A DNA stretch of 64,000 nt from Bacilli bacterium (GTDB lineage Bacteria > Bacillota_I > Bacilli_A > RFN20 > CAG-826), in the NCBI GenBank assembly GCA_017940265.1, contig JAGAYY010000025.1:256711-320710 (forward strand), given 5' to 3'. A program made the position numbers and the translations under genes. Positions 14,547 to 44,839 of the stretch are shown here, in pieces (the first letter of the stretch is position 1; every line of letters starts with the position of its first letter). The notes under the pieces are model-generated. The model was not told where the DNA came from. It worked only from the letters and a program-made list of their open reading frames with translations, and made no database searches.

Positions 14547-16589
14547 TCATTTTCTTGATATTATTTCAAATCCATCTTTAACTCCAGAATCAGTAATTAC
14601 CTTAACTACTTTGAGATTAAAATAGTTTTCTAAATTTTTTGCCTTAGCGACTGATTTATACCCTAATTTTTCATAGATATCCTTTAGTGTAGATTTTATA
14701 TAAACATAAGAATATCTACTACCAACCTCAAAAGTAGAATACACAAGGTCCTCTAATTCTTCCTGCTTTTCTGAATTTTGACTTATTCTATTCCACTCTC
14801 GTTCTATATCAGCTTCTAGATATTTGAGCGCTTTCATCCGTTCTGTTCCGAAAGCTAGGTAATAATCCTTAAATTTACCAGGGAGTCTATCTAAGAACTT
14901 TCCCATATTCTCGGGATCAAGACTAACCTCTATATTATGTATAAACTTAATTTTATCTGGAAATGTCGTTAGTCCATTGAATTCCACTAATAAATCTGAT
15001 ATTCTACTATCCTGGGCTAGGAATCCAGCTTCTCCTAAGGCATTATACACACTGAATCTATCTTTATAATCTACTTGCTGGATATCGAAAGCTCTCATCT
15101 CCGATACCAACATTAGGTTATTAAATACCGGGAGAAGATCAGAACCCGCATGATGATTAACGGCAACATAGTCATTTAAGTAGTGAGATAACTTAATTTC
15201 ACTCTCGTATTTCTTAGCCAATGAATGTCTTTTAGTAGGGTCAGCATCTCTGTATATGTCTAAGAGGTCATAACTAGCTTGTTTTTTCTCTTCTAGGCGT
15301 TTATCAAAAACCTCCTTCGTCTGTTCCTCCTCTGTTGTTTTAACTACCAGATAAGCAGAATTCTTCCAAGGGTTAATATCGAGTCTTTGTCTACCCATAA
15401 TCTGTTCTAAGTCCATACTAATATCAACACTAAGACAATCTATATTACTATCACAGAAAATGAAAGTTCTAGCATTGGTACTATAGAAATCAGCACCGAG
15501 GTATACTGTTCTAGTACAAAAAGTAAACATCTTATGAGGTTCACCTTGTTTAGGAATAGAGCCAATAGCATCAATAGTCCCTGCCTTAGCCCTTTTCATT
15601 GACGGTCGGCCTAATTCGGAAAGAGCCTTATTGAATGCCTGCTTAATTAATTTATTATTTTCGAGAGTCTTAGCACATAGAACGTTACATTGATCTGGAG
15701 TTAATCTATTGTTGATGATAGCCCTAACAATAGCTTTAACTGAATTAACATATATAACTGCCTCCTTAGATACTACTTCATAGGGTCGGCCATCTTCTCC
15801 TATATATCTTCTCCTCTCATACTCCCCACTCAGGTATGGTTGGATTATTTTATTGATCTCTTCATTCAGTCCACGCTTAGTATATCTAACCTCAATCTTC
15901 GGACTAATAACTCGATCCGGATCTTCTTTACTCCAATTAAGTTCATAGTATGGAAGATTCTTAAATTCATCCAGCATATCTAAGTATTCATCTAACATAG
16001 GAGTAGCGGATACAAAGCAAACCTTCTGAATACCTAGGAGCTGATATAAGAGTTCAAGTTCTGTATGAGATTTGAAGCGTGAATCAATGAAGATGCTTTG
16101 AAACTCATCCACTACTATATAGAAATCTTCTAAGACTCCGAGTTCAACTAATACTTCCTTGATATGACGGAATGAATCATAGGTAACTAGAATCTTAGCA
16201 GCTTTTCTATTAAATCTGCATTTCCGGACATAATCTCTGGCTCTATCCTTAAACTCCAAGACTCTTTCAATACTTGGGACTGGTGGATCTACTATTTTTG
16301 CACCTTTAGTCATAGTACTAATATCCTTGTCATATCCAACAACGGATTCAATGTCATTTCTTGCATAGAATACTTCTCCTTGATGTTGATCCTCCTTATT
16401 CTCTAAGAGAAACCGGCGGGGACTACATACGACAACATTAAGTCCGCACCTGATACAATACTCTGTGAAACCGCAACCAGTCAGTGTCTTGTTCAAAATA
16501 TGAGGAGAGTTAAAGTTTTCTAATCCATATTCACTCCACTCTCCTATGTACCTTATTCCTTTTGGTACTACAATCTCTTTTCTATTCAT
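14547..16589 (-). CDS. SF2 helicase-like protein, paralog 1 (Walker A Lys replaced)
   Basis: Motif order GCGFTEY (I, no Lys), CSPRRFLLEN (Ia), VVDEFQS (II), VSATP (III), QIMGRQR (VI). The 718-aa track ORF uses a TTG at 16703. The ATG at 16589 matches the paralog N-terminus, and the 16590-16703 stretch is conserved as DNA with a stop-containing stretch upstream of paralog 2. Confidence 0.8.
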   Translation of the reverse strand: MNRKEIVVPKGIRYIGEWSEYGLENFNSPHILNKTLTGCGFTEYCIRCGLNVVVCSPRRFLLENKEDQHQGEVFYARNDIESVVGYDKDISTMTKGAKIVDPPVPSIERVLEFKDRARDYVRKCRFNRKAAKILVTYDSFRHIKEVLVELGVLEDFYIVVDEFQSIFIDSRFKSHTELELLYQLLGIQKVCFVSATPMLDEYLDMLDEFKNLPYYELNWSKEDPDRVISPKIEVRYTKRGLNEEINKIIQPYLSGEYERRRYIGEDGRPYEVVSKEAVIYVNSVKAIVRAIINNRLTPDQCNVLCAKTLENNKLIKQAFNKALSELGRPSMKRAKAGTIDAIGSIPKQGEPHKMFTFCTRTVYLGADFYSTNARTFIFCDSNIDCLSVDISMDLEQIMGRQRLDINPWKNSAYLVVKTTEEEQTKEVFDKRLEEKKQASYDLLDIYRDADPTKRHSLAKKYESEIKLSHYLNDYVAVNHHAGSDLLPVFNNLMLVSEMRAFDIQQVDYKDRFSVYNALGEAGFLAQDSRISDLLVEFNGLTTFPDKIKFIHNIEVSLDPENMGKFLDRLPGKFKDYYLAFGTERMKALKYLEADIEREWNRISQNSEKQEELEDLVYSTFEVGSRYSYVYIKSTLKDIYEKLGYKSVAKAKNLENYFNLKVVKVITDSGVKDGFEIISRK

Positions 16590-17098
16590 GTTTTTAAATT
16601 TTATTATTCTATCCACCCTTGTATTTTTGGGCGGAATCAGGTCTTTATTCGATAGTAAGGATTTGAGAGCTTCTGAAGTGTGAAACTTCGATTTTATTTT
16701 CAATTTTCAAACATATCCTTATATGAATGTTTGGGTTCAAAAAAGTCGAAAAAATGTATAGGTTATATTGTTAAAACAAAAGGAATCTCGCCTTGGCTTT
16801 CGCCTCGGCTCGAGTCCATTCAAGGGATCTTCGGCTAAAGCCTTCGATCACATTCGGTCGGTTCCCTCCCTCACCTTGAATATAGTATTAGGTCTTGTAA
16901 TATCCTTTACTTCAAGTCTTTGAAGTAAAGATTCTGGTCCGGGCAACGACGAGCTTTAGCGAGGAGGGGCTAGGTGGGCGGACCAGAATGACGAAGTCTT
17001 TGATAACCCTAGAATCATATCAAATAAGTTATCATAGATAACACCCTAGATTCATTTATATACAAAGACAAATACTATAAGCAGAAGCTCTCAACTTC
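16590..17098 (-). promoter_or_regulatory. long structured upstream/leader region of SF2-like paralog 1
   Basis: No credible ORF. GC-rich island 16781-16990 with perfect 11-bp hairpins (16905-16930 and 16931-16989). Block 16655-16686 is conserved with 42708-42737. Confidence 0.45.
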
Positions 17099-17145
17099 AA
17101 AAAAAAAAAAAAAGCTCCGCGCCCGTGTTTTTAACGGTTGCGCGG
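17099..17145 (-). terminator. rho-independent terminator
   Basis: On the minus strand: stem CCGCGC..GCGCGG (17117-17145) with inner CCG/CGG, followed by 15 consecutive T (17099-17113). The stop of gene 17131-17493 lies in the loop. Confidence 0.85.
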
Positions 17146-17493
17146 CTTATTGTTGATTTGGTATTCGTGCATTGGATACCAGACCTCGGTTACTGTAATT
17201 CTATCTCCTACCTTCATATCATAGTAACCTTGAACTCCACGTCGGGATATCTCAAGCCCGGAATCTAATCTAACTCTAACCTTCCTGCGACAATGTTTAG
17301 AGCTTCGTTTACCAATGATAGTTCCGGTATGGGTGACTGGTTTGTGGTATTGGTTAACCACTGAATCACTAAATAGAGGATAAGTTTTAATCCACACGTA
17401 GTCTTTTGTTTCTTTGACTACTACCGGTCGTTTAGGTTCGGTACATCCTATTATTATCAGGAAGAGCGTTACTAGTCTACATAATTTCCACAT
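17131..17493 (-). CDS. putative lipoprotein
   Basis: 120 aa; signal plus lipobox LFLIIIGC. Confidence 0.65.
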   Translation of the reverse strand: MWKLCRLVTLFLIIIGCTEPKRPVVVKETKDYVWIKTYPLFSDSVVNQYHKPVTHTGTIIGKRSSKHCRRKVRVRLDSGLEISRRGVQGYYDMKVGDRITVTEVWYPMHEYQINNKPRNR

Positions 17494-18452: not shown

Positions 18453-19559
18453 TCATACTATTTCCCATTTAACTTCTTGTGCTTCGTAATATTCTGGGAG
18501 GACTAGAGAAGATATCATTTTATCTATTACCTCTTCCGGAACAATAGCCTCCCTGGAATGATTTCTCTTAGTTTGTTCTTCGGGCGTAGTCTCCAGATAT
18601 ATGATTTTGACTCTTGCCTTATAGGATTCGAAAAGATCTATTAGTTGTCCTCTCGACCTACCTAAGTTGGTTGCATTCCATACGAAGGATTCTTTTCTCC
18701 TTAGGTATTCTTTTGCTTTCTCCTTGGCGGCCTGAATTATTTTACCGTCGATCGAACCCGGCTTAAGTCCTAATTCCTCCCTAATCTGATCCAAGGAAAT
18801 TACGGCCAGATCAGAGTTCTTCTTTATCCACGTGTCCTTGCCTGTTCCCGGAAGACCACACATAAGGATTACTTCTCCCCAGGTGTCATCAAATAAGGAA
18901 GGTCTAGAACAATTCCCCGTTCCGAATCCTAGGAACTTATGATCTGAATAAGGATCTTCTCCAAGGTGTCCCATCCCCTCTAGTAATCCTTCATCTTCTG
19001 CCAAGACCCTGAAATATTCAATATTTTCCAAGGAAACTTCTTTATCGGCGCAGATTCTTCCTTGGATATCTGCTTTCGAGAGTCTATACAAGAGATCTAA
19101 ATTAAAATCTGGGCTGAGGAATCCGGTAGCAGCAATCCGATAGAGTTTAGGAATTCCGTCACTATCGGTTAAAGCATGTGGAGGAAAACCATGATACCTA
19201 ACGAGAGAGACAACCGCTTCTCTGTACAGCATAGCCTCTTTAGTTCCTACTAATCCGAACTTTTTCCATAATATCTCACGGGTCATTTTTGCACCGATGA
19301 TAGAGTGATTTGGACATACTATATCACCGTTGCCTAGGTCTTGAGTGGTTCTGATTTTCCCGATATCATGAAGAAGAGCTGCAATCCTGAGGATAGATTC
19401 CTGATATTCGGTAAGGCCAATAGTGTCTAGAGAATCATAGACTAGTCTGGTATGTGTATAGACATCTCCTTCTCCATGGTATTTCTTGTCTTGTGGAGTT
19501 TCTTTCAAGGAGTCGACCAGACCGGATAAACAATTCTCTTCTATTTCCTTATACTTCAT
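18453..19559 (-). CDS. HD-Pnk type RNA/DNA end-healing enzyme (N-terminal HD phosphoesterase + C-terminal P-loop polynucleotide kinase)
   Basis: HD domain: HGEGDVYTHT.., LLHDIGK. Kinase: ILMCGLPGTGKDTWI. Start taken at ATG 19559 (longest ORF starts at 19601). Confidence 0.8.
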   Translation of the reverse strand: MKYKEIEENCLSGLVDSLKETPQDKKYHGEGDVYTHTRLVYDSLDTIGLTEYQESILRIAALLHDIGKIRTTQDLGNGDIVCPNHSIIGAKMTREILWKKFGLVGTKEAMLYREAVVSLVRYHGFPPHALTDSDGIPKLYRIAATGFLSPDFNLDLLYRLSKADIQGRICADKEVSLENIEYFRVLAEDEGLLEGMGHLGEDPYSDHKFLGFGTGNCSRPSLFDDTWGEVILMCGLPGTGKDTWIKKNSDLAVISLDQIREELGLKPGSIDGKIIQAAKEKAKEYLRRKESFVWNATNLGRSRGQLIDLFESYKARVKIIYLETTPEEQTKRNHSREAIVPEEVIDKMISSLVLPEYYEAQEVKWEIV

Positions 19560-20235
19560 ACACAAGTTTAGCTCGTTTCCAGTTTTTAGCCCAGAAGACA
19601 TCGGTTCTAACGTGATGAGGTCTTACGTACTTGCAAACATGGCGTGGAAATTCGTCCCCAAGACCAAATCCTTCGGTAGTTCTCATTACCACGCCCTCTT
19701 TCTCGATTCCGTAGGTTGAAGGATATTTCATTTGTTCGAGAATAAGTTCTTTAATTTGTTCCTCTGATTCTGCTACTCCTCTCCAAAGAACTGGGACATG
19801 TGGTATTTGTAAGAGCTCAGAGAATTCGGTCACTTCATCCCAAGAATACCATCTCTTATTATCCCTTACGGCGAAGAGATGATAGTAGGAAGGAAGTTTA
19901 TTGTACTCGATTGAATGAATTCCGAAGAGGTTTTCACCATAGATTAGTTCATCTTCACCAATCAAGTCCTTAAGGGTCCAGAATATACCACCAGTTCCCC
20001 ACATATTCCTAGACCAATCCGAGCGTGTGGGGGCGGCATGGGATCTGGCATAAACATCAAAGTGTGAACAAGACGTATTTTCTCCATCTAATTTCTCGGT
20101 TAGGACTATTTCTTTTCCTCTATAATCCTCAAACCAGCCATCATGGAGTAGTCTGTCATCTGATGTAGTCCCAGGTGAAAATGGGACATGATACGTTCTA
20201 GGATACTTCTGATTATCTATTATTTCTTTTTCCAT
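19549..20235 (-). CDS. ATP-dependent RNA ligase (RNA_ligase / nucleotidyltransferase-only type)
   Basis: YPRTYHVPFSPG.., motif I EKLDGEN, motif III IYGENLFG, motif IV EGVVMR, motif V KYVR. Confidence 0.85.
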   Translation of the reverse strand: MEKEIIDNQKYPRTYHVPFSPGTTSDDRLLHDGWFEDYRGKEIVLTEKLDGENTSCSHFDVYARSHAAPTRSDWSRNMWGTGGIFWTLKDLIGEDELIYGENLFGIHSIEYNKLPSYYHLFAVRDNKRWYSWDEVTEFSELLQIPHVPVLWRGVAESEEQIKELILEQMKYPSTYGIEKEGVVMRTTEGFGLGDEFPRHVCKYVRPHHVRTDVFWAKNWKRAKLVYEV

Positions 20236-29312: not shown

Positions 29313-29355
29313 AAAATCTTTATCAATATTAAGGAAAAGACGGCAAAATTAGACC

Positions 29356-29417
29356 AAAAATCCCAAAAAATCCTTGAAAAATTGTCGGAATCCCTTATCC
29401 TATGAAGTAATATCAAG
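29356..29417 (+). promoter_or_regulatory. conserved intergenic element, copy 1 (phased A-tracts + TTGTCGGAATCCCTTATCCTATGAAGT)
   Basis: About 80% identical without gaps to 47711-47773; lies in the divergent control region. Confidence 0.5.
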
Positions 29418-29554
29418 TCGAGGTAAGTATATTATTTCAGGGATAGACTAGTGTTCCAGGAGTTGGGAAAGGAGATCTAACGGGTGGAATCTCGTCTTGA
29501 TCACTCCGACTGCCTTGGAACCAGTCTTCCCTTCTTTTTAATTTTCTAAATACT

Positions 29555-39093: not shown

Positions 39094-40965
39094 ATGAAAT
39101 TGAAAACTAATAAACATAAGATTATGAATAAAGTAAATTGGAAAAATGAATTATCTAAACTTCGAGAATATATTGAAGTGAAACATATGACATTCGAGGA
39201 GGTTGGAAAAATATATAATAAGCCTAAAGGACAAATCGAAGTTGTATGTATAAGATATGGTATTAAATATGCCCATAGAAAAGTTTTCCCTTGGAGAGAA
39301 GATGAAATAAATACTGTCAAAGAGGAATTGCTTAAAGGTAAAACCTATGAAGAAATTTCTGAGTTACTACCAGGGAGAACCAAAAATGCGGTAAAGTCTC
39401 TTTATGAATATCATAGTAAGGAATTAAATTTAGTAAAACCTAAAAAACCAAATGGTATTACTAGTGAAAATGAAATAAAAATAAAGGAACTAGTATTAGA
39501 TGGTTATCCTGACCCTTGGATAAAACAATTAACTGGAGTATCTACTGATTGGATTTTAAAAGTAAAAGAAAAATACAATATTATTCAACCTAGTATAGAA
39601 GAACTACAAGATAAAGGTATATTTTTTACTAGTACTCCTAATATTACGCGTATAGAAACTGAATTGACTAAAGAAAAATTAATTTTATTACTGAATGACA
39701 ACGTTTCTATATGTGAAATGTCCAGAAGATATAGTATAAATATAAACACTATAAGAAATTTAGTAAGACGCCTTGGTTGGAAAGATGAAAAACTTGCATC
39801 TGCTAAAAATCTTAAACGCAAATTATATAAAGAGATACATGGGATAATAAATCCTACAGAAAAGCAACTTAATAAATCTTTCTTAAGCATATTTACTAGA
39901 GATTATATTCTAGATCTTCTCATAAGAAATGAATATAGTCTTAAGAAATGTTCATTAGAGCTTGATAATATAGATCCGAAATGTATATCTAGTGCTATAA
40001 AGAAATATAATATTGATATACCAGAAGATTTTGATTATAAAAGAAAATTTGGTCCATCATTTCAAAGTAGAATGGAGAACAATAGGAAAGAGTTTAGAGA
40101 ATATATGAATATTTATTTTCCGGATTATGAAATTATAGAAGATTATATTGGATCAGAAGAACATATAAAGCTAAGATGCAAAATACATCCGGAAGAAATT
40201 ATAGTAACCACTCCTTACTCTATAAAAACTATATTTACTTTACATGATGAAAACGGAAATATAATAGGAACTAAGCACCTCTGCAAAAAGTGTAAAGACC
40301 TAGAAGAAATCGCTAAAAAACTAACTGTTATTAAAAAAGAAATAGAAGAAACTTTTCCTGGTAAATTTGATCTTTCTGAATCAACTATAGAAAAAGTTTT
40401 TGTTTCTGAAAAATCTGGGCATAAATTAGTACTTACTAATATAAAATGCAATAAATGTGGTAATGTGTTTAAAGCAGATATTTATGACATTAGAAACAGT
40501 GGAGTTTGTAAGTTCTGTGATCTAAAATCTTCTGGAGAAATAAAAACAAAAACAGTTCTAGATAGACTTGGGATAAGCTATACAGAACAAAAATTAAACA
40601 ATCATGCAGTTCCCAAAGAAATAAGATCAATGGGTATATTTATAGATTTTTGTTTGGAGTATAATGGAAAAGAAATATGGATTGAATATAATGGTTCTCA
40701 ACATTATAAGTTTTCCACTAAATTTCATCAGAATATGGATGAATTTAAAAATAATATTCTACGTGATCTTTATGAGAGAAAATATTGTGAAGAGAATGGA
40801 ATACTTCTTATAGAAATACCATATACTTTCGATACTATAGATAAAATCCAAAATCTCTTACAGAAGGTAATTATTGATGGTCAGGATATAAATACTATCA
40901 TTGACTATAAACCTTTCTATGAGAAGATTAATAAACTTGGTGGTATATATGCAAATAATACGTAA
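39094..40965 (+). CDS. free-standing homing-endonuclease-like protein (multi-HTH + Zn-ribbons + PD-(D/E)XK/Vsr-like C-terminus)
   Basis: At least 5 HTH-like modules (e.g. MTFEEVGKIYNKPKGQIEVVCIRYGI; VSICEMSRRYSININTIRNLVRRLGW). CKKC/CNKCG..CKFC. C-terminus SSGEIKTKTVLDRLGI..FIDFCL..IWIEYNGSQHY. Markedly more AT-rich than terL. Confidence 0.6.
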   Translation: MKLKTNKHKIMNKVNWKNELSKLREYIEVKHMTFEEVGKIYNKPKGQIEVVCIRYGIKYAHRKVFPWREDEINTVKEELLKGKTYEEISELLPGRTKNAVKSLYEYHSKELNLVKPKKPNGITSENEIKIKELVLDGYPDPWIKQLTGVSTDWILKVKEKYNIIQPSIEELQDKGIFFTSTPNITRIETELTKEKLILLLNDNVSICEMSRRYSININTIRNLVRRLGWKDEKLASAKNLKRKLYKEIHGIINPTEKQLNKSFLSIFTRDYILDLLIRNEYSLKKCSLELDNIDPKCISSAIKKYNIDIPEDFDYKRKFGPSFQSRMENNRKEFREYMNIYFPDYEIIEDYIGSEEHIKLRCKIHPEEIIVTTPYSIKTIFTLHDENGNIIGTKHLCKKCKDLEEIAKKLTVIKKEIEETFPGKFDLSESTIEKVFVSEKSGHKLVLTNIKCNKCGNVFKADIYDIRNSGVCKFCDLKSSGEIKTKTVLDRLGISYTEQKLNNHAVPKEIRSMGIFIDFCLEYNGKEIWIEYNGSQHYKFSTKFHQNMDEFKNNILRDLYERKYCEENGILLIEIPYTFDTIDKIQNLLQKVIIDGQDINTIIDYKPFYEKINKLGGIYANNT

Positions 40966-42498: not shown

Positions 42499-42820
42499 TT
42501 ACAAGATGATAGATTTCCATTTTCTCTCGCGCCAGGGGAACCGGAAAGGGAGCCCCTTAATGCCTATCTGCCGATGACGGCATTAAGGCCGCTACGCGGA
42601 AGGCTAAAGCCATTGAACTCCTCTCCCTAATTCCAATTTTTCTAATTTTTTGGTGCCAAAATAATATATTAAACCAATTACAGTAAAAATTGCGTTATAA
42701 ATAGAAATTTCACGCCTCAGAGAAGCTCAAATCCTAATATGTGATGTAGAGAATCGGGCTTCCCCGATTCCCTTGGCCGGTTTATTGGCCAAGGAATTAA
42801 CTTTAAATATAAAACATATT
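42499..42820 (+). promoter_or_regulatory. structured upstream/leader region of SF2-like paralog 2
   Basis: GC-rich island with a 10-bp hairpin (42555-64/42579-88). Block 42708-42737 is conserved with 16655-16686. Two perfect 8-bp hairpins (42751-70, 42771-94) lie just before ATG 42821. Confidence 0.45.
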
Positions 42821-44839
42821 ATGGATATAGTTAAATTAGAAAATGGAAAATCTTTAATAAGAGTTCCAGAAAATATAAGGTACATGAATGATTGGAAAGA
42901 ATTTGATTTCGATTTATTTCATGGACCTTATATTATTGACAAACAAATCCCAGGTTGCGGATTTACAGAGTATTGTCTTACTTCAGGAGATAATCTTATA
43001 CTATGTTCTCCTCGTAAGATTCTTCTAGAAAATAAAGCTAATCAACATCTAGGGGAAGTCTATTATGCTAAGAATGAGATGGAAACGGATCTTAGTATTG
43101 ATAGAGATTCTACTAAAAAGGTTAAGAAGTTATCTAGGGAAACTAAGAAAGAGGATATACATGCTGTTCTTGAAGCTATCGAAAAAATGTATAAAGGGTT
43201 GGATGAGTACATAGAAGATAGAATTAAGAATAGAAAACCTATTAAAATATTGGTTACCTATGATTCTTTCAAACATATCAAGAATTATCTTTTAAAAAGA
43301 AGTAGTCCAGAGCTAGATATCCTAGGATCATTTAAAATAGTGATAGATGAATTCCAGTCGGTTTTTGTAGATTCACACTTTAAACCAACAGTAGAATTAG
43401 ATTTTGTTAATCAACTTTTGGGGTTATCTAATAACATTTGTTTTGTCTCAGCGACTCCTATGCTAGATAAATACCTTAAGCAGGTTGATTATTTCAAGGA
43501 TCTACCATATTTTGAATTTGATTGGGAAACTTTAGATCCGGGCAGAGTTATTAAGCCTGAACTTAAGGTTAGAAAAGAAAGATCTGTTTATGGTAAAGCA
43601 GTTAATATTATTCAAGAGTACCTAGATGGGAAATTTGCTGTTCTTGCAGATCCTACCTCAGGTAAATTAGTTAAAAGTACAGAGGCCGTATTTTATGTAA
43701 ATTCTGTCTTAGGAATTATTAAGATAATAGGAAAAGCTGGTCTTACACCAGATCAGGTTAATATTTTATGTTCTAATACTCCACAAAATCAGAAGAAGAT
43801 TAGAAAAATGTTAGGCAAGGGATTTGTGATTGGTTCAGTTCCCTTGAAAGGGCAGCCACATAAGATGTTTACATTCTGTACTCGAACTGTTTACTTAGGA
43901 GCAGACTTCTACTCAATGTGTGCTAGAACCTTTATATTTAGTGATGCTAATGTGGACTCTATGGCTATTGATATTTCTCTCGACTTACCACAGATTCTAG
44001 GTCGACAGAGGCGTATAGAAAATCCATGGAAGAATCATGCAGAATTCTACTTCAAAACTATTGGAAAAACTAAAGAAGAAACTATAGAAATATTTAGTAA
44101 ACGTCTTGATGAAAAACTAAGGGAAACCTATAGACTTCTGAGAGCTTTTGAAGGAGCAGTAGAGGAAGATAAATCGGCACTATTGAGGAAATATACAAAA
44201 GATATTGCTTCATCTAATTATATGGATGATTATGTATCGATAAGTTTTGTCAATGGTGAGAAAATACCAGTTAAGAACAATCTTGTATACATCTCTGAAC
44301 AACGAGCTTATGAAATACAGCAAATAGATTATAAAGATAGATTCTCAGTTTTTAGTTCTATACAGAAAGAAGGATTGAAACTAGATAGATTAAGTAAAGC
44401 AATAGGAAGGTTAAGGGAGACTTCTATTCCTTTCTCAGCTCGACTAAAATATTTATGTGAATCTACCGAGTATTCTGATGAGGAAAAGAAAATAATAGCG
44501 CAACAAGCTTCGGAGAGCTTTGATAGATATTATAATCTCCTAGGACCTGAAAGATGTAAGGCGCTAAGATATAATATTACTGATCTTAAAAAAGAAATAG
44601 CCGATATTTCTATACCAAAAGAAAAGATAAGTCAAACTTTTCAGAGTAATTTTTTGGTTGGTGCTAGATATTCTAATGTTCAGGCTAAAGAAATTATTAG
44701 AAAAATTTATTCTGAACTTGGTATGAATAAATCACCTAAGGCAACTGACCTAAACAACTATTTTGTTTTTAAGAAAGTAAAATTTCCTGATTCAACCGGA
44801 AAAATGATAAACGGTATTGAAATTCTAGGAACTAAATAA
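42821..44839 (+). CDS. SF2 helicase-like protein, paralog 2 (Walker A Lys replaced)
   Basis: PGCGFTEY, CSPRKILLEN, VIDEFQS, VSATP, QILGRQR. Collinear with 14547-16589. The track start at 42773 is a TTG inside a hairpin. Confidence 0.8.
   Translation: MDIVKLENGKSLIRVPENIRYMNDWKEFDFDLFHGPYIIDKQIPGCGFTEYCLTSGDNLILCSPRKILLENKANQHLGEVYYAKNEMETDLSIDRDSTKKVKKLSRETKKEDIHAVLEAIEKMYKGLDEYIEDRIKNRKPIKILVTYDSFKHIKNYLLKRSSPELDILGSFKIVIDEFQSVFVDSHFKPTVELDFVNQLLGLSNNICFVSATPMLDKYLKQVDYFKDLPYFEFDWETLDPGRVIKPELKVRKERSVYGKAVNIIQEYLDGKFAVLADPTSGKLVKSTEAVFYVNSVLGIIKIIGKAGLTPDQVNILCSNTPQNQKKIRKMLGKGFVIGSVPLKGQPHKMFTFCTRTVYLGADFYSMCARTFIFSDANVDSMAIDISLDLPQILGRQRRIENPWKNHAEFYFKTIGKTKEETIEIFSKRLDEKLRETYRLLRAFEGAVEEDKSALLRKYTKDIASSNYMDDYVSISFVNGEKIPVKNNLVYISEQRAYEIQQIDYKDRFSVFSSIQKEGLKLDRLSKAIGRLRETSIPFSARLKYLCESTEYSDEEKKIIAQQASESFDRYYNLLGPERCKALRYNITDLKKEIADISIPKEKISQTFQSNFLVGARYSNVQAKEIIRKIYSELGMNKSPKATDLNNYFVFKKVKFPDSTGKMINGIEILGTK

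Follow-up and report, generated by a model that had tools for sequence, protein, structure and literature searches.

A folded non-coding element upstream of helicase-like genes that huge gut and rumen phages carry in many copies

The gap, its neighbours and the SF2-like protein

The window, by which is meant the whole 64,000-nt stretch of DNA analysed, has a GC content of 37.3% and appears to be part of a very large phage genome; ENA contigs of 268–394 kb match it, ERZ27256935 k141_328788 among them. Transcription within it is divergent near 29.4 kb. On the minus strand, a gap at 16590–17130 separates the gene at 17131–17493 from an SF2-like gene, paralogue 1, and this upstream region (r1) is the subject of the present report. 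Elsewhere the window carries an amidase-like ORF, recognized from its translation, and, at 18453–19601 and 19549–20235 (minus strand), an HD and AAA_33 protein resembling polynucleotide kinase-phosphatase (Pnkp-like) adjoining an RNA ligase, which together are a T4-type RNA repair pair. An ORF at 39094–40965 (plus strand), in a 28% GC stretch, encodes 623 residues with repeated helix-rich N-terminal units and Cys-rich motifs, and is possibly a selfish nuclease-type gene. ARAGORN found no tRNA or tmRNA in the window.

The gap is non-coding. Stop codons of at least two kinds occur in each of its frames, so that no single stop-codon reassignment makes it coding, and translation under a reassigned stop codon was rejected on this ground. 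An earlier note on this DNA had likewise described the gap as non-coding and, from stops in the equivalent DNA upstream of paralogue 2, as conserved at the nucleotide level; the conservation found here is at the level of both nucleotides and structure. As that note had remarked, the ORF of paralogue 1 can be extended from a TTG, and this longer frame (14547–16703) runs 114 nt into the gap. The real start is the ATG at 16589, where all 29 aligned homologues begin. The GC-rich island placed by the note at 16781–16990 measures 50.5% GC against 37.3% for the window. Among the intergenic gaps of the window, a 60-nt GC maximum above 0.6 is found only upstream of the two SF2-like genes (0.63 and 0.62), and GC peaks 200–500 nt upstream are general across the SF2-like gene family. 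The sense strand of r1 folds far better than shuffled sequences (z = -4.5), and the antisense strand does so as well (z = -5.4).

For the SF2-like protein, searches of Pfam, PHROGs, NCBIfam, PADLOC and PDB sequences gave no match. Its AlphaFold model (pLDDT 82.6) contains a generic SF2 helicase core, which Foldseek matched best to WRN/RecQ, Brr2, DEAD-box proteins, the HSV-1 origin-binding protein (UL9) and Cas3 (E about 1e-9 to 1e-6). In all 29 aligned members motif I reads GCG[F/Y]TE, with Phe or Tyr in place of the Walker-A lysine; motifs II, III and VI are retained (DEFQ, SAT and QxxGRQR). The protein sequence thus suggests a helicase fold, perhaps without the usual ATP hydrolysis. Modelled alone (pLDDT 90), the C-terminal module, at about residues 520–680, has a beta-alpha-alpha-beta-beta unit as its last part; the only folds matched, including the P4 origin-binding domain, are winged-helix-like, and these matches are weak and not significant (E > 0.06). 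Its Pfam matches, to Cac1_C and DUF2087, are likewise weak. This module of about 150 residues is copied in a second ORF, about 500 nt downstream, in many loci (L007, L012, L046, L069, L072, L075, L077, L081, L111, L139, L144 and others). Protein matches spanning about 3 kb, considered as introns or inteins, were rejected as such and correspond to this second ORF. No retron reverse transcriptase was found downstream of the gap: Pfam detects no such domain in the protein there, and its fold is that of an SF2 helicase. The homologues scored number more than 4,900, none of them named; 485 loci lie in IMG/VR and at least 577 in JGI metagenomes. IMG/VR phage contigs of 350–400 kb carry several copies of the gene each, and the family also occurs in rumen metagenomes.

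Paralogue 2 (42821–44839, plus strand) is 42% identical to paralogue 1. The counterpart region upstream of it (r2) contains two 8-bp hairpins (42751–42770 and 42771–42794), and a best-helix search found no clear long-range arms there. The block of about 32 nt at 16655–16686 that the earlier note had matched to 42708–42737 aligns at 23 of 30 positions, and belongs to a family-wide motif. The 'ordered blocks' said to be common to r1 and the paralogue 2 region are short, BLAST detects no similarity between r1 and r2, and the MAFFT alignment is unconvincing. Direct alignment of r1, r2, the third region (r3) and locus L001 was uninformative. The link of r1 to the paralogue 2 region is weak, and consists of a promoter-like motif and short blocks.

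Three regions of the window had been grouped as upstream regions of paralogues. Two of them do precede SF2-like paralogues, whereas 29313–29554 is a divergent promoter region of unrelated genes. The sequence reported as common to r1 and this third region, GGAATCTCG[C/T]CTTG, is indeed present, at 29485–29498, and the region holds a 14-nt remnant of hairpin H4 (29485–29503) together with the promoter-like motif (GGAATCCCTTATCCTATGAAG) at 29388–29412 on the plus strand. Since these lie upstream of non-SF2 genes, the modules are not strictly confined to the paralogues.

Conserved architecture with covarying arms and internal helices

The gap is one copy of a folded non-coding element found ahead of the members of a helicase-like gene family, which very large phages of gut and rumen carry in many copies. 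The parts of the window copy, for which the sense strand is the minus strand, are given in Table 1.

Table 1. Features of the element in the window, its flanking genes and its counterpart upstream of paralogue 2
Feature	Position	Strand	Basis
SF2-like paralogue 1, 680 aa	14547–16589	-	Homologue alignment, AlphaFold, Foldseek
Conserved promoter-like motif (UUUCACACUUCAGAAGCUCUCAAAUCCUUACUAUCGAAUAAA), includes 3' arm	16655–16696	-	Comparison across loci
3' arm of long-range inverted repeat, sense CAGAAGCUCUCAA, 74–86 nt before ATG	16663–16675	-	Repeat analysis
AT-rich spacer	16697–16781	-	Sequence; matching position AT-rich in other loci
Hairpin H4: GGA-C-UC-GA-GCC-GA-GGC-GAAA-GCC-AA-GGC-GA-GA-U-UCC	16782–16817	-	MFE and centroid
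Hairpin H3: GAUC-GAA-GGC-UUUA-GCC-GAA-GAUC, purine-rich symmetric internal loop on sense strand	16826–16849	-	Predicted fold
G-rich tract GGUGAGGGAGGG, complementary to H1 loop CCCCUCCUCGC(U)	16864–16875	-	Best H1-loop partner in r1, L164 and L174; weak scores
Hairpin H2: 11-bp perfect stem, loop AGAC, abuts H1	16905–16930	-	Repeat analysis
Hairpin H1: 11-bp perfect stem, 37-nt C-rich loop (CCCACCUAGCCCCUCCUCGCUAAAGCUCGUCGUUGCC)	16931–16989	-	Repeat analysis
AT-rich spacer with palindrome GTTATCTATGATAAC (17028–17042) and direct repeat ACCCTAGA(A/T)TCAT	16990–17081	-	Repeat analysis
5' arm of long-range inverted repeat, sense UUGAGAGCUUCUG, with family core (C)AGUUGAGAG	17082–17094	-	Repeat analysis: 13 nt, 100% complementary
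Terminator-like hairpin of upstream gene 17131–17493: CCGCGC-17 nt-GCGCGG, then T15 run	17099–17145	-	Read from sequence
Counterpart region upstream of paralogue 2 (r2): GC island 42520–42640, motif 42708–42745	42499–42820	+	

A perfect 13-bp inverted repeat, absent from the earlier note, brackets the region with 406 nt between its arms. An inner repeat lies at 16881–16899/17061–17079. Twenty-seven loci carry the core of the 5' arm at the distal end of their upstream regions. Outside the arms, the upstream gene has a terminator-like hairpin whose end is 4 nt short of the 5' arm; this hairpin is absent from the output of the hairpin scan, which accepts loops of up to 8 nt. It is the sole hairpin followed by a T-run, H1–H4 having none, and no intrinsic terminator was found between the arms. 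A sigma-70 and terminator scan of the region was uninformative, and CATATAAGG, considered as a general promoter element, is not enriched in the window.

Between the arms, the two perfect 11-bp hairpins previously noticed were confirmed, with stems at 16905–16915/16920–16930 (H2) and 16931–16941/16979–16989 (H1). The G-rich tract and the H1 loop are a candidate pseudoknot or alternative pairing. The design of H3 is also found in L001, L002, L003, L085, L164 and L175. On the sense strand H4 has two tandem-purine internal loops and a GNRA tetraloop (GAAA), and its counterpart in L170 has a GAUA loop. The perfect palindrome between the 5' arm and H1 is kept in three loci (the window, L170 at about 2063–2077 and L174 at about 934–948) and looks like an operator or a short hairpin. 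The promoter-like motif is the family motif of about 40 nt, ending ..AA(T/C)CCTTA..ATGA, of which a forward copy is present at -220 to -40 in 66 of 165 loci.

When relatives were examined for conservation, the upstream architecture was found to recur in gut and rumen loci, in a constant order on the gene strand: 5' arm, hairpin array, AT-rich spacer, motif of about 40 nt, and 3' arm 40–130 nt before the ATG. The proposal that the gap is related to regions upstream of paralogous genes was borne out, the best evidence lying outside the window, in L164 and L170, which are paralogues 3 and 4 of the same phage genome, and in L174, which encodes P0003. These share with r1 the hairpins H1 and H2 and the GA-loop hairpins, with compensatory changes in the stems. 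The four regions are arranged alike, with a 5' arm (C)AGTT(G/A)AGAGC, an AT-rich stretch containing GTTATCTATGATAAC, H1, H2, further hairpins, an AT-rich spacer, the motif and the 3' arm; the hairpins after H2 are built as stem-GA-GGC-loop-GCC-GA-stem. Between r1 and L164/L170, four stem pairs of H1 have changed on both sides and the C-rich loop is conserved. Both the rumen and the gut subfamilies have related C-rich tracts. An identical H2 is present in r1 and L170; in L164 another stem sequence with the loop AGA occupies the same place, and in L174 the stem is 12 bp long and its loop is GAAA. L164 and L170 have an identical H1, and L174 is a mosaic, modules having been exchanged among paralogues. 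The arms of r1 and L164 are shared, their proteins being 57% identical.

Segments have also been turned round. The H1–H2 block is inverted relative to the gene in L175–L177, and hairpin loops are reverse-complemented between relatives, as in L086/L087/L114 compared with L097/L105/L118/L124/L125 (a 57-nt hairpin, AAGCTAT..ATAGCTT) and in L042 compared with L076. Such flips suggest that recombination between stem arms inverts segments over evolutionary time. The upstream sequences of different subfamilies are too diverged for BLAST alignment. The matches to an nhmmer profile of H1–H2 were all in paralogues of this one phage. In IMG/VR no exact match to the H1 loop pattern was found, and a strict regular expression for GA-flanked mini-helices gave too few matches to use.

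Some subfamilies carry further features. In L002 (2270–2560) and L083 (1–290) a tandem array of about ten palindromic units of about 30 nt (ATAGTTT-N8-AAACTAT), with short variable spacers, sits between the 5' arm and the GC-rich hairpins. The rumen subfamily has a terminator-like hairpin with a T-run after the 5' arm. In L094, L097 and L132, and in L086, L173 and L095, pairing is possible between the C-rich tract in the internal loop of H1 and a conserved stretch some 70 nt upstream of the ATG, as CUUCGCUAU/GUAGCGGA in some loci and CCACU/AGUGG in others; the two sides appear to change together, with weak scores.

To find long-range arms, 1.2-kb upstream regions were searched for the best helix joining their distal and proximal parts. 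Most loci have arms of 10–34 bp, 280–700 nt apart, with sequences wholly different between subfamilies. An arm score of at least 40 was reached in 26 of 119 loci, against 2 of 119 mismatched-locus controls. The window arms score 32 on the lenient helix score, a value that 21 of 119 controls reach, and the chance of the window 13-bp match, about 0.003, is an uncalibrated back-of-envelope estimate rather than a computed one. Alignment of 28 rumen loci on the core gives 78% paired cells; shuffling gives 65%, and 0 of 500 shuffles reach the observed value. The observed percentage is inflated because the loci were picked partly by pairing count. Compensatory change is seen in 15 of the 20 arm pairs, with 106 compensatory cells against 53 expected, and slid arm registers pair at 44.5% at most. 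The cores change in step: GUUGAGAG pairs with CUCUCAA and GUUAAGAG with CUCUUAA. At the DNA level, GTTAAGAG is always opposite CTCTTAA (L106, L170, L173), and GTTGAGAG is opposite CTCTCAA or, as a wobble, CTCTTAA.

Covariation extends to the internal helices. A three-way junction of a gut subfamily has, on the sense strand, 11 compensatory pairs and six pairs using G·U, with no A·C, and 10 of 20 predicted pairs of the rumen H1 show compensatory changes, with G·U pairs present.

A proposed sense-strand structured RNA and its competitors

The leading reading, given a little under an even chance, is that the gap encodes a large structured RNA on its sense strand, as a leader or a processed ncRNA. 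Conservation and covariation are the grounds for it. The element would be a modular, fast-evolving domain transcribed on the strand of the SF2-like gene. Its closing helix would pair the 5' arm (core CAGUUGAGAG) with the 3' arm (CUCUCAA...), 40–130 nt before the start codon, and would enclose H1 with its C-rich loop, H2, purine-loop hairpins with GNRA-type loops and an AT-rich stretch. The folded molecule would be RNA: arms 280–700 nt apart are too distant for a DNA cruciform, so their pairing would imply a single strand. The long, near-perfect helix may be a processing stalk, at which cleavage of the RNase III type would release the domain and fix where the helicase-like mRNA begins. The domain could affect its own gene in cis, at the level of expression, or could be an RNA partner for the protein that this gene encodes.

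RNase III processing stalks are known from rRNA precursors, the R sites of phage T7 and the lambda N leader. As in these, the flanks of a folded domain pair near-perfectly over 13–34 bp and the 3' arm would lie in the downstream mRNA leader; a near-perfect duplex of at least about 12 bp flanks the domain in the window (13 bp) and elsewhere (10–34 bp), and the window closing duplex is a candidate RNase III cleavage site. The element differs in that the enclosed RNA is not a known stable RNA, and in that the promoter-like motif sits between the folded domain and the 3' arm. This position, together with the T-run hairpin that follows the rumen 5' arm, indicates that the two arms may not share one transcript.

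The strand of the element leans towards that of the gene. The GNRA and tandem-GA motifs are on the sense strand (H4, and the GAAA loop of the L174 H2), as are the G·U pairs of the gut junction, and orientation relative to the gene is fixed in 165 loci. In the arms, G·U exceeds A·C modestly (61:24 and 38:23), and stringent local hairpins give no strand signal (11:8). Against an RNA, both strands of r1 fold equally well, paralogue 2 lacks clear arms, and the inversion of the H1–H2 block and the loop flips are changes that a sequence-specific RNA should not tolerate easily.

A DNA element, which we consider unlikely, would place protein-binding sites in the arms and their cores, recognized perhaps by the winged-helix-like C-terminal module of the SF2-like protein and of its small neighbour, and forming an operator or an origin-like site. 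The presence of HSV-1 OBP among the helicases matched by the SF2 core, the weak winged-helix hits of the C-terminal module (including the P4 origin-binding domain), its duplication in the downstream ORF of many loci, the arm core conserved within a clade, the conserved palindrome GTTATCTATGATAAC, the tolerance of block and loop inversions and the weak G·U bias in the arms are all consistent with such a site. Protein recognition would explain the core, but not the compensatory change in the variable arm extensions, and arms 280–700 bp apart cannot pair in duplex DNA. Moreover, G·U pairs in the internal helices of two subfamilies are confined to one strand, the fold matches of the C-terminal module are not significant (E > 0.06), and r1 and L164 have arms in common at a protein identity of only 57%. 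The closest models would be origins with their initiators (HSV UL9/oriS, phage P4 alpha/ori, archaeal orc1/oriC), in which, as here, a helicase-fold protein has a C-terminal, possibly winged-helix, module and inverted boxes flank an AT-rich stretch next to the gene. The present element is unlike them in occurring in at least five copies per genome, in having arms that covary beyond a fixed box, and in its association with a protein that lacks the Walker-A lysine and has no significant DNA-binding fold match.

It is rather improbable that the region has no specific function and is a recombination-prone cassette of hairpins, terminators or insulators with a promoter, kept alike by gene conversion. 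T4-type phages have promoter-early stem-loop cassettes, which offer a parallel for a gene-converted regulatory cassette. The shuffling of modules among paralogues whose proteins are about 50–60% identical (H1, H2 and the L174 mosaic), the H4 remnant and promoter-like motif upstream of a non-SF2 gene (29388–29503), and the loop and block flips would all be expected of it. However, the architecture of arms, H1 with its C-rich tract, H2, spacer and motif persists between gut and rumen loci whose proteins are about 42–50% identical, and the stems show compensatory change, not the simple identity that conversion would leave. H1 and H2 have no T-runs and so are not ordinary terminators, and BLAST found no further copy of an r1 or r2 module in the window, only chance-level short matches.

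An invertible promoter, with a site-specific recombinase flipping the segment between the arms and so switching each paralogue on or off, is very unlikely. Bacteroidota invertons, such as those of Bacteroides capsule loci, similarly have inverted repeats with a shared core flanking a few hundred base pairs directly upstream of several loci per genome. Here, repeats of 13–34 bp, 280–700 bp apart, lie directly upstream of the gene, their core is common to several loci of a genome, and the promoter-like motif is inside the segment; the host is probably a member of the Bacteroidota, since no Shine–Dalgarno sequence precedes either gene. Among 165 upstream regions, however, no whole-segment minus-strand match was found, and the motif is always forward and gene-proximal. 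These loci include up to 12 independent assemblies per locus and all the paralogues of single genomes, and L163, L164–L168 and L169–L172, from different samples, are all co-oriented. The lack of any whole-element flip makes an invertible promoter unlikely, and, unlike in an inverton, the internal helices covary on a single strand.

Equally slight is the chance of one or more separate small-RNA genes on the strand opposite the SF2-like gene (plus in region 1). That strand folds slightly better, and GGAAUC/GGUUCC in r1 and GGAAUU/GGUUCC in r2 pair with G·U only when read antisense, but the GNRA and tandem-GA loops found in H3 and H4 belong to the sense strand alone, gut and rumen G·U use is on the sense strand, and no plus-strand promoter or terminator rises above chance level. 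A MITE, a non-autonomous transposon inserted upstream of the gene, would account for terminal inverted repeats of 13–34 bp with a CAG-type outer end, and is scarcely credible given that no target-site duplication flanks the arms, that there are no copies elsewhere in the window, and that place and orientation relative to one gene family are constant across deep divergence.

Relation to known systems and significance

The search of Rfam that the earlier note had suggested gave no match for the window region: with Rfam 15, including ROOL, GOLLD, HEARO, group I and II introns, ribozymes and riboswitches, nothing reached a gathering score in the window or in 14 related loci from different subfamilies, and a permissive search (E up to 10) gave only chance-level matches in r1 and the L077 upstream region. 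BLAST searches with the region and with the surrounding 6 kb found no match among 50,697 phage records, and a literature search found nothing relevant.

The sense-strand RNA, as proposed above, would have much in common with ROOL, GOLLD, HEARO and OLE, large ornate ncRNAs of phages and of gut or rumen bacteria. These likewise span several hundred nucleotides, form many hairpins whose stems covary, are rich in GC against an AT-rich genome, come from phage or rumen metagenomic DNA and had no known function when discovered. The element differs from them in having no Rfam match, in being tied to one protein gene family and placed immediately 5' of the gene, and in being modular, with subfamilies that BLAST does not align. 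Retron ncRNAs (msr-msd, with a1/a2 repeats) are similarly structured, bracketed by inverted repeats, and directly upstream of and co-oriented with a partner protein, but the gene here is SF2-like and not a reverse transcriptase, and the element is 2–4 times longer. None of the systems compared fits on its defining features, and the element is rated as a gene-linked structured non-coding element.

A bolder proposal, for which the likelihood is low, is that these elements are a new class of ornate RNAs of 0.3–0.7 kb, excised at the closing helix and forming an RNP with the lysine-less SF2-like protein, with at least five diverged RNA–protein pairs per phage. If the element is RNA, it would belong with the larger of the structured RNA classes that await description, and would provide a first functional handle on an abundant, unannotated protein family. 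As a DNA site, it would instead be a landmark of regulation or replication in the genomes of huge phages.
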